Part shown: piece after piece, positions 21,001-24,000 of the stretch
Position numbering within the stretch: the stretch's first letter is position 1
Layout of the letters: the number at the start of each line of letters is the position of its first letter
NCBI RefSeq assembly: GCF_009931435.1
Contig: NZ_CP043414.1
Strand: one strand, 5' to 3'
Source: Escherichia coli
Lineage (GTDB): Bacteria; Pseudomonadota; Gammaproteobacteria; Enterobacterales; Enterobacteriaceae
Length of the DNA: 64,000 bases
Program-made: the position numbers

Positions 21001-24000
21001 ATTTTTATCTTTTATTTTATTTACAGTTTCAATGCAATCAGCGACAAGTTGGTGTGGATTTAGATTCTTCAGATATGGTCTTATGATCTTTCCCTTGCTT
21101 AATAAATAGCATGTATAAGATTCGGAAAGTCCAGCATCTATTTTGTACATCATTATTCTAGATAAGGATGTGAGAAATGCCTTGTTATCATTAGCAGCCA
21201 TATATGCCAGTCCGAGTTCAGCCTCTGCGGCTTTACATGAAAAATAGCTAAGTGAACACGCTTTTCGTCCCTCTTGGGTACTGGCTGATATTAGTGCCCA
21301 TAATATTGCCTTGTCTGCCAAATCCAACTCTCTCTGAAATTGGTTTACAGTAACTGCATTCGCAGAAATAGAGAAAAAAAGCACAATTGTTAATAACCTT
21401 GCCATATTTCTAGTCCGTCACTGTTAATGTGTTATCTGGCTCTGAAAATATTAGCTCATTTAATTTTTGCATGTCATTAGATGAACCAGTTATACAACCC
21501 TCGGAACAGAATCGAGGTCCTAAAGATGGACCAAAAGCGTTTAAACAACTATGTATTAAAAATCCATCACGATTATACGTTTCTGTATTTGCTGACGGTA
21601 CTAAACGTATACCATTAGGTTTTCTATTAGTTGCTCCAGGACCATTAACATTCCAGGTCCATACCCCTTGAGGTATTGGGCCTCTATTTTGTAAGTGTGT
21701 ACAACCAGGATTATTTTTACATTGCATATTATTACCATTATTACCAGAGGCGACTGAAATAGTAAGCACACCATAAGAATTATCATCACCTGGTATATCT
21801 GAAACACACGAAAGCATACCTAAAGTTATGCTGTATAAACAGGTGGCTAATCCCAAGGGGATCGATTCCAGAAATCGGGTTCAAAGGATACTGATAAAAA
21901 TTCCACCTACCTTCCAGCCCAATCGGAGCCTGAGTGTTATACCGCCCCTGCTGCGGTTAATGTTACCGATAATAGTTATAGTACAGCCCTGATTCATCAT
22001 CATACTACTGCTGCGGCAGTCTGATGAATTATTGCTTTTACGGATTCTCCTTATTCTTCCTTCTATCCATTCGCTTTAGCTTTAGCTTTAGCTTTTTGAG
22101 CTCTTGAAGTTTGCTCTTTGCATCAATATTACCGTTATTTACAGCGAATTCCATCCAATAAATAGCTTTATTCAAATTATAATATTCTGATAATATTGGA
22201 TTTGTATCCGATAAAAAAACTCCATAATTAAACTGCGCTGTAACATTCCCCTGAGATGCTGATCTTTCTAAGTATCGCAATTGTTTGTAAATGTTATTTT
22301 TAGTAAAGCAGTAATATTGATATAGTCGAAATGATGCCTCTGAATCACCATGTTGTGATTTATACTTCAGTTTCATCAACTTTTCTTCACTTAAATCATA
22401 GGTCATTGCTGTAGACCCCATCATACTTTCGTTTTGTTTTATTTTCACATCAGCACCATGCAATTGAAAAATAAAAGAGAAATAAAAAAATAGTAACAAG
22501 CATGCTTTCATACATCTACAACCTATCTTATATCACTGGGTTTTTCTGGCGTACCTTGCATATTAGAAATGGGGTGCCCAGATGGCCCATATGTTATCCA
22601 ATTACCAAGGTCTTTTGTTGTTATAGCCATAAGATCCTTATTTGAATTAAGGTTCGTTGGTGCTGTTAGCACTGTATCCATTTTTAACTTACCATTAGTT
22701 CCTCGCCCCACCACGTCCATAGCGTGTCAGGTCCTATTACATTTGTATGTAACTCTTTAGCTAATTGGCTAGCAAATGAATTTTGTCCTTTACCTGTATT
22801 ACAAGAAAATAACCAAACTGTCATCCCATCTTTATAATTCCCATCAAATTTAATTAGATATGCTAGATCTTTAGCTGTCATGATACTGCGCGTTGCGGAT
22901 TCAATAGATGTGGGGGTACCATGCCCCCCGATTGTGAAAACGCCTGGGATATTAATCTCATCAGCTACAGAATGGATAAGATCACTTTCGGGGTATAAAT
23001 TTATATCAACCAAACCTTGCGGATCTACATTTATGACCGGATCCAACGGATACTGATAAAAATTCCATCCCCCCTTCAGCCCAATTGGATCCTGAGTGAT
23101 ATACCGCCCCTGCAGCGGGTCATAATAGCGGTGGCGGTTGTAATACAGGCCGGACTCCTCATCATACTGCTGCCCCGGCAGCCGGATGAGCTGCTGCAGT
23201 TGATGCGGGTTCTCTTCATTCAGCAGGTTGCCCCATTCATCATATTCTGCGTACCACGCTGTTGCCCCTTCCGTGCTGACAAGCGCCAGGGGCAGACCGC
23301 GATGGTCGCAGTGGTACAGGTGAATTTTTCGCGCCGGCGTGTACACCGGGTCCATCTGGTTTTGCATCTGCGTCACCGTCAGGCCGCACGATGCCAGCCA
23401 GCGGCGGCTTTCCTCACTCACCCGGTCAGCCAGGATTTCACTTTCCAGCCGGTCGAGCATCTGCACCGTGCCGGCGGGAATACCCCACTGTGCATAGGCA
23501 ACTCACGCTATGAACGCTTCAGCTTATCAATAGCGGAAGTTATAATTTCATTGTCATCAAACTTGTACAACATAGTATCTAAAACAGGAAGTAGCGTTTT
23601 ATCACCTAATTCACCCGCAGCTTCAATGATATCATCATAAACAGTATTTTTTTTTAACTCATCGCATAAAACAGATAAAACCCTTTTATCTTTTCTGTAG
23701 GAAAGTCCGATTATTGCTTCAATACGGACTTCCTCATTTTTATCCTGAAGCATCTCCACAAAACAATCCCTAATATCACTATTATCATATTTATTGATAT
23801 TTATTGCAAATGCGGCCCAGTTTCTGACATCTCCATTTGGATCTTTTAACAGATTAATCAATAGTGGAATTGTTGCTTTATCATTGATAACAGAAATAGC
23901 AAATGCTGTAGCACGTCTGACATTAGTCGATTTATCAAAAGCAGTAATTTGAGATTGTTCTACTATTTTAGGTGAATAAATTGGGTTTTTCTTGCATCGC

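Follow-up and report, generated by a model that had tools for sequence, protein, structure and literature searches.

The rhsA locus of Escherichia coli (E. coli), which corresponds to the region between yibF and mtlA in the 64,000-nucleotide (nt) stretch of contig NZ_CP043414.1 analysed here (hereafter the window), contains downstream of its full-length rhs gene a small Rhs fragment, yibJ, that is followed by the gene yibG. The two appear to form an Rhs toxin-immunity module displaced at this locus by C-terminal displacement, and the two open reading frames (ORFs) of 260 and 65 amino acids (aa) into which the fragment is now divided each hold one half of a single Rhs C-terminal toxin domain. 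The best explanation for the whole of the evidence, which we consider likely, is that of a displaced orphan module with a lesion due to the loss of one G, whose toxin tail would resemble proteases of clan CD and whose cognate immunity protein would be a periplasmic YibG. Overall, yibJ and yibG constitute here an ordinary decayed orphan module of an uncharacterised toxin family. Rather more tentative, though to be taken seriously, is the proposal that the YibJ tail and YibG represent an uncharacterised and widespread family of antibacterial toxins that act in the periplasm, have the protease fold of clan CD (DUF4347/Tce-like) and are neutralised by a secreted Sel1-like immunity protein. About 64% of complete E. 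coli genomes possess the pair, K-12 among them with a broken form, and related copies of the domain are found on Rhs proteins of many bacteria. All relevant genes of the rhs locus lie on the minus strand, to which the coordinates of its features given below refer.

The split toxin domain of the yibJ orphan

The Rhs core remnant of the orphan (23011..23490) has no N-terminal PAAR/shell region and no native start codon; its homology to the cores of the main rhs gene and of another orphan of the locus (orphan 1) extends over about 470 nt (23021-23490), with 93-95% identity. The core closes with the PxxxxDPxGL motif, read directly from the sequence, after which follows a tail that differs from all other rhs tails of the window (Ntox34, Tlde1 and the unclassified tail of the main gene), just as an earlier reading of this DNA (hereafter the original prediction) had described a fragment sharing the end of the core and then taking a tail of its own. 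Together with the absence of the PAAR/shell region, the position downstream of an rhs gene of full length and a neighbouring immunity gene, these are the features of the orphan rhs modules of Salmonella and E. coli, which have the same architecture of core fragment, PxxxxDPxGL motif, variable tail and immunity gene and are likewise stacked downstream of a full-length rhs gene. Nothing fundamental sets the yibJ orphan apart from them except for a private inactivating lesion, and the homology of its core permits recombination into the main rhs gene, as in other orphan modules. The model of C-terminal displacement is reportedly that of Jackson in 2009 and Koskiniemi in 2014. Orphan rhs genes are described in Salmonella (PMC7043789).

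The 260-aa ORF that corresponds to yibJ (22684-23466) matches the Rhs core domain PF03527 (E 5.8e-17) and is overlapped over 37 nt at its 3' end, in a different frame, by the 65-aa ORF (22523-22720). Both ORFs, as well as yibG, lie where the original prediction had placed them, and its suspicion that the toxin domain is frameshifted proved well founded when the tail region was aligned with that of an intact full-length Rhs protein, WP_202859782.1 (1409 aa; strain RIVM_C019217, rpmE-yiiX locus), and with a K-12-type copy from strain Stbl4 (L003 7512-8468). In this alignment the window allele lacks one G of a run of five, leaving GGGG at 22706..22709 where intact alleles have GGGGG. Insertion of one G restores a single frame of 315 codons, which closes with the 65-aa ORF's stop codon, the very stop of the intact homologues, and the repaired tail of 162 aa is then identical in every residue to the tail of WP_202859782.1. 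Residues 1-102 of the tail (22706..23010) are in the frame of the 260-aa ORF and contain the invariant His30 (codon 22921-22923) and Cys70 (codon 22801-22803), while residues 103-162 plus the stop codon (22523..22705), now out of frame, form the body of the 65-aa ORF. Intact homologues thus extend past the end of the 260-aa ORF, reading on as far as the stop codon of the 65-aa ORF, and the segment encoded by this ORF has homologues with conserved positions. The annotation of the NCBI Prokaryotic Genome Annotation Pipeline (PGAP), which we have taken from the record that matches the window exactly (NZ_ABACVG020000001.1, E. coli strain 2020CK-00188), independently treats the orphan as one pseudogene, labelled 'frameshifted; incomplete; missing N-terminus'. 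We also considered, and rejected, an interpretation of the 65-aa ORF as a small gene in its own right: the ATG at 22720 from which it starts is incidental, and in 3424 genomes its sequence continues the tail in frame.

What is left of the toxin in the window is a product that ends after residue 102 of the tail and six wrong residues, EELMVS. It keeps His30 and Cys70 and is probably non-functional, because the 60 residues that it loses include three beta-strands of the predicted structure.

The whole arrangement is common among the 5426 complete genomes of E. coli that we have surveyed. The 1.5-kb segment spanning yibJ and yibG is found in 3421 of them, and therefore the arrangement of its ORFs is no chance pattern; the junction between yibA, the gene that precedes the orphan, and the orphan itself is seen in about 2958, which shows that the position of the orphan is the usual one, and most orphan copies have kept the tail ORF intact. 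The toxin tail as such is carried by 3449 of the genomes. Alleles were distinguished with probes of 81-84 nt, for which one difference lowers the identity below 99%: the G5 allele is present exactly in 3424 of the 3449 carriers, and the G4 allele has just three exact full-length matches, in the window strain, TUM9757 and K_EC180. The G4 copy of TUM9757 is an orphan of a different haplotype, with a yibG of K-12 length and 96.5% identity over 1.5 kb, and that of K_EC180 belongs to a full-length gene at the rhsB locus, which has an IS1 insertion as well. Since their contexts are unrelated, the three G4 records reflect separate events, whether true mutations by slippage or individual miscalls of the homopolymer. 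The K-12 copy keeps the frame and has a nonsense codon, CAA>TAA, at Gln82 of the tail, an allele present in 359 genomes; with the insertion of K_EC180, it indicates that orphan and tail copies decay by other lesions too. The 'yibJ' gene model of K-12 is the truncated product of the same toxin, stopping at Gln82.

These frequencies raise a question: is the missing G a real mutation? A change of 1 nt in the length of a G5 run is a classic error of long reads, and the distribution of the G4 allele, in 3 of 3449 records that differ in haplotype and locus, is what sporadic errors would produce. The real genome might then have the G5 run and an intact orphan tail ORF, like about 89% of the E. coli genomes that carry the tail. 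We regard such a sequencing or assembly error as unlikely, yet deserving of attention, for the assembly does not look rich in indels (none of the 33 coding sequences in the remaining 33.7 kb of the window carries a frameshift flag), the other nearby 'frameshifted' calls, namely Imm57 and remnants of insertion sequences (IS), are common to K-12 or TUM9757, and orphan copies have been seen to decay by other lesions. The position of the lesion within a homopolymer, with a G4 state that has arisen at least three times, might also recall a site of phase variation or programmed frameshifting that switches toxin production on and off. This idea is extremely improbable and was rejected on the allele frequencies, which give it no support: the in-frame G5 predominates in 3424 of 3449 genomes, a run of five G is short for efficient slippage, and switching would have no obvious effect in an orphan without a delivery domain; no slippery or stimulatory element turned up, although no search was aimed at such elements. 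The loss of one G from the G5 run would, then, have inactivated the tail in the window strain and left yibG intact, which amounts to the ordinary decay of a silent orphan toxin whose immunity gene is kept, already flagged in the public annotation.

As to the expression of the module, a scan of 21900-23700 for consensus promoters and terminators found such sites no more frequently than in shuffled sequence. The sole hint comes from K-12, in which the RpoD holoenzyme binds between yibA and yibJ and between yibJ and yibG (PMC3946193).

Sequence family and predicted fold of the toxin tail

The repaired tail of 162 aa has no match in Pfam, none among the sequences of the PDB and only noise in NCBIfam. 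A word-indexed search for homologues retrieved the E. coli copies and three relatives from Salmonella or metagenomes, with 44-47% identity, and an exhaustive profile search extended the family to 729 representatives with E <=1e-3. Leaving aside giant proteins, the domain is C-terminal in 113 of 121 matches, often behind signatures of the Rhs core. His30, Gly31 and Cys70 are conserved in 97-99% of the 162 sequences of the family alignment, in which Gly136, an aromatic residue at 141 and Pro143, all within the part that is out of frame in the window, are conserved as well. In the E. coli tail the residues of the dyad have the contexts VFTIGGH30G and VWLFSC70.

The link of this family to DUF4347 appears to be transitive only, passing through one relative, P0030, whose region matching the tail profile is DUF4347 for Pfam (E 3e-15). 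Among the 64 relatives that were aligned, three match DUF4347 and two match Peptidase_C80 (E about 1e-3). When the profile was searched against PDB sequences, the only match was a non-significant one to legumain (E 0.17), in the alignment of which the His-Gly and the Cys of the family fall on the HG and ACESG motifs of legumain, which we take to be its catalytic dyad. A side observation concerns the giant proteins P0028-P0032, P0036 and P0040, of 3000-7000 aa, which have a WXG100-like N-terminus and three to six internal copies of the His-Cys domain; Pfam assigns one of these regions to DUF4347.

An initial AlphaFold model based on 4 sequences proved unusable, with a predicted local distance difference test (pLDDT) score of 61, and was replaced by one of the repaired tail built from 64 sequences, with a pLDDT of 92.1. 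This model has strands at 24-28 and 64-68 and places the His of the His-Gly pair and then the Cys at the ends of hydrophobic beta-strands, with residues 103-162 contributing three further beta-strands. Foldseek gave as top match the protease domain of RtxA (3eeb), with modest scores (E 0.02, template modelling [TM] score 0.40). In a structural comparison the highest Z score was that of Tce1, a DUF4347 protein solved in the Hcp3-Tce1 complex (9qpe; 8.7), followed by the cysteine protease domains of RtxA (8.1) and TcdA (7.8), gingipain K (7.3) and the CHAT protease (6.6); lower matches were TcdB, legumain, clostripain and glycosylphosphatidylinositol (GPI) transamidase, with caspases and separase further down.

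In the model, then, the E. coli tail has the order His then Cys and the alpha/beta/alpha caspase-haemoglobinase fold that distinguish clan CD, and its predicted fold is that of clan CD (caspase/legumain/C80-like), with the canonical His-then-Cys dyad. The tail is a sister of DUF4347 and C80 and by the criteria of hidden Markov models (HMMs) a member of neither. Its intact form would be a small cysteine protease domain of clan-CD type, with His30 and Cys70 as the dyad.

Comparison with the known proteins of this structural group reveals differences in their setting. The C80 protease domains of Vibrio cholerae MARTX RtxA and Clostridioides difficile TcdA and TcdB are about 40-90 residues longer than the E. 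coli tail. They are self-processing modules, activated by inositol hexakisphosphate (InsP6), of toxins that target eukaryotes, and not the killing domain; bacterial prey would not be expected to provide InsP6. Tce1 (PA0256, DUF4347; PDB 9qpe) and Tce2 are effectors of the H3 type VI secretion system (T6SS) of Pseudomonas aeruginosa that travel as free-standing cargo loaded into Hcp, and action against eukaryotes has been proposed for them. In their description of 2026 the same dyad is aligned to that of TcdB, and the toxicity of Tce2 in yeast depends on the Cys (PMC13323088). In contrast, fusion to an Rhs cage characterises the E. coli domain, which is always accompanied by a Sel1-like partner bearing a signal, a combination which implies an antibacterial role in the periplasm. 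If true, this would provide the first antibacterial context for DUF4347, a context different from the action against eukaryotes suggested for Tce1 and Tce2.

YibG and its pairing with the toxin

The gene yibG (22038..22511) begins 11 nt beyond the toxin's stop codon and encodes an intact Sel1-like repeat protein of 157 aa, 98% identical to the copy that lies behind the intact toxin. Its Sel1/TPR-like repeats, which the original prediction had recognised, find their counterparts in solved Sel1-repeat proteins (E 1.9e-9 to 1e-3), while the matches in Pfam stay below the cut-offs (Sel1 18.9 bits vs 30.7; TPR_27 21.6 vs 27). The signal peptide that had also been proposed is predicted from the hydrophobicity of the N-terminus (about 22455-22511) and from a plausible cleavage site, LHG|A. 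At its 3' end (22075-22100) the gene has a tandem AGCTTT repeat encoding KLKLKLK, a basic C-terminal tail. The gene is also polymorphic in repeat length, K-12-type alleles being 12 nt (4 aa) shorter, with 153 vs 157 aa.

The pairing of the two genes was examined in six sampled loci of this toxin type: that of E. coli, one of Salmonella enterica subsp. salamae (L007), two on contigs from metagenomes or read assemblies (L009 and L010), a VgrG-PAAR-Rhs operon (L012) and a locus with an Rhs-like protein of 1493 aa (L013). A homologue of YibG lies directly downstream of the toxin in all six. In the five loci beyond E. coli, the downstream gene encodes 119-153 aa and is separated from the toxin by 11-70 nt, and its product aligns with YibG with pairwise E values of 2e-34 to 6e-8 and 26-46% identity; the order in L012 is VgrG-PAAR-Rhs-Sel1-like protein. 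All six proteins have a signal-like N-terminus, basic and then hydrophobic, with Kyte-Doolittle values of 2.2-3.2 over 12 residues, which in L013 becomes evident only after the mis-called start is moved to the upstream in-frame ATG (MKKHQMLLTCLLVSSF...).

The original prediction had left two roles open for YibG, that of the cognate immunity protein and that of a stockpiled one. The former gains by this comparison across E. coli, Salmonella and metagenomes and the latter has been set aside: YibG would be cognate rather than stockpiled to the yibJ toxin, because its adjacency is conserved across such divergence. The presence of a signal-like N-terminus in every sampled homologue suggests, in turn, that YibG is probably periplasmic, and hence that the target of the toxin lies in the periplasm too.

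A similar proposal exists for the enterohaemorrhagic strain O157:H7 EDL933, the rhsA gene of which (EDL933_4854, corresponding to z5014 fused with z5017) is full-length and has the same type of tail followed by a YibG orthologue; O157 records have the intact G5 allele and are annotated as 'RHS element core protein'. The module resides there in the active main gene, whereas in the window it is a displaced and frameshifted orphan. The product of z5018, named 'RhsAI', has been proposed in silico as the immunity protein of RhsA, whose tail (z5017) is of yibJ type (PMC7216683). The same study obtained a TcdA-like model, with a TM score of 0.73, and read it as pointing to GTPase inhibition (PMC7216683); its model of z5018 has 132 aa and does not include the signal-like N-terminus (PMC7216683). 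A wider parallel is provided by P. aeruginosa. Its proteins PA5087 and PA5088 are periplasmic. These small Sel1-like repeat proteins neutralise the T6SS effector PldB (as cited in PMC7216683). Their partner is a phospholipase D and not a domain of clan-CD type, so that they share with YibG the repeat scaffold only.

Could YibG be unrelated to the toxin, as another secreted Sel1-like protein or as the immunity left behind by a different toxin since lost? Sel1-like repeat proteins have many roles, the Pfam match of YibG to Sel1 is below the cut-off, and the neutralisation of the toxin is deduced from adjacency and from matching predicted compartments. Against this stand the homologues of YibG in all six loci, found even where the toxins have about 30-50% identity and including the VgrG-PAAR-Rhs operon, the gap of only 11 nt in E. 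coli and the same pairing proposed for O157 RhsA and z5018 (PMC7216683), which together render the absence of a functional bond very unlikely. The nature of the toxic reaction leaves greater latitude. The tail might use its clan-CD scaffold for a non-proteolytic reaction, for example the periplasmic cutting or transpeptidation of peptidoglycan stem peptides or of lipoprotein links: the immunity protein appears periplasmic, GPI transamidase and asparaginyl ligases are examples of transamidases within clan CD, a cell-wall toxin of Tlde1 type is encoded by the neighbouring orphan, and the domain has 162 aa against about 205-250 aa for C80 protease domains. The nearest structural neighbours, however, are enzymes that cleave proteins, and no specific feature points to peptidoglycan; we judge this alternative improbable, if less so than a YibG that is foreign to the toxin.

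Returning to the reading of the module as a decayed orphan with a clan-CD-like toxin and its own periplasmic immunity protein, several observations weigh against it. The E. coli tail has no match to the HMMs of DUF4347 (PF14252) or Peptidase_C80 (PF11713) with E values up to 10. Protease activity, toxicity and protection by YibG are predictions for every member of the subfamily, and the signal peptide of YibG is deduced from hydrophobicity. The G is missing from a homopolymer, and its absence is recorded in three unrelated genomes only, as a sequencing error might be. Finally, cytoplasmic expression of Tce1 and Tce2 was not toxic to E. coli, and neither has an immunity gene (PMC13323088).

In mechanistic terms, C-terminal displacement at the rhsA locus would have left behind about 480 nt of Rhs core, the 162-aa toxin tail and yibG. 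The orphan would be undeliverable as it is, and could regain activity only if it recombined into the main rhs gene and had the missing G restored. The intact form of the tail is carried by full-length Rhs proteins of O157:H7, of the enterotoxigenic E. coli (ETEC) strain H10407 and of other strains. It would be delivered by the T6SS, a route suggested by the distant relative that sits in a VgrG-PAAR-Rhs operon, and would act on a periplasmic target with the chemistry of cysteine proteases, while YibG would neutralise it by binding through its Sel1-like repeats. We found no functional study of yibG or yibJ in the literature; the two genes, long listed in K-12 without a known function, can now be interpreted as encoding a toxin and its immunity protein. 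This provides a testable hypothesis for yibJ and yibG, for Pfam DUF4347 and for the Tce effectors, with intact alleles at hand in O157:H7, ETEC H10407 and RIVM_C019217.

Neighbouring modules of the locus

The main rhs gene of the locus (26178-30371), annotated as 'rhsC', encodes 1397 aa with an unclassified tail and is followed downstream by ybfB (25852-26178). Next comes orphan 1 (24371-25579; 402 aa), which has an Ntox34 tail and is followed by yibA (23508-24365), a gene with HEAT repeats. The Ntox34 tail with yibA is the tail of rhsA itself in TUM9757, and in the window an orphan behind the main rhs gene; the stretch from the main gene to the Ntox34/yibA orphan (24371-30371) is a clear example of stacking by C-terminal displacement. 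Downstream of yibG lies a third orphan, which is degraded: its short Rhs core remnant (about 21860-22003) has internal stop codons and is out of frame with the ORF of 148 aa that contains the Tlde1 domain (21410-21856). The Imm57 gene that follows (20884-21405) is frameshifted according to PGAP, a flag that it also has in K-12 and TUM9757.

Two further features lie outside the rhs genes. A hicA/hicB type II toxin-antitoxin pair, with a hypothetical gene beside it, is annotated in the matching record (L006 25493-26105) between yiaW and aldB, at about 37896-38508 of the window. Between mtlD and mtlA (about 16170-16440) there are two near-identical short copies, which give rise to duplicated peptide strings in spurious ORFs and look like intergenic repeats of the repetitive extragenic palindrome (REP) or bacterial interspersed mosaic element (BIME) type.

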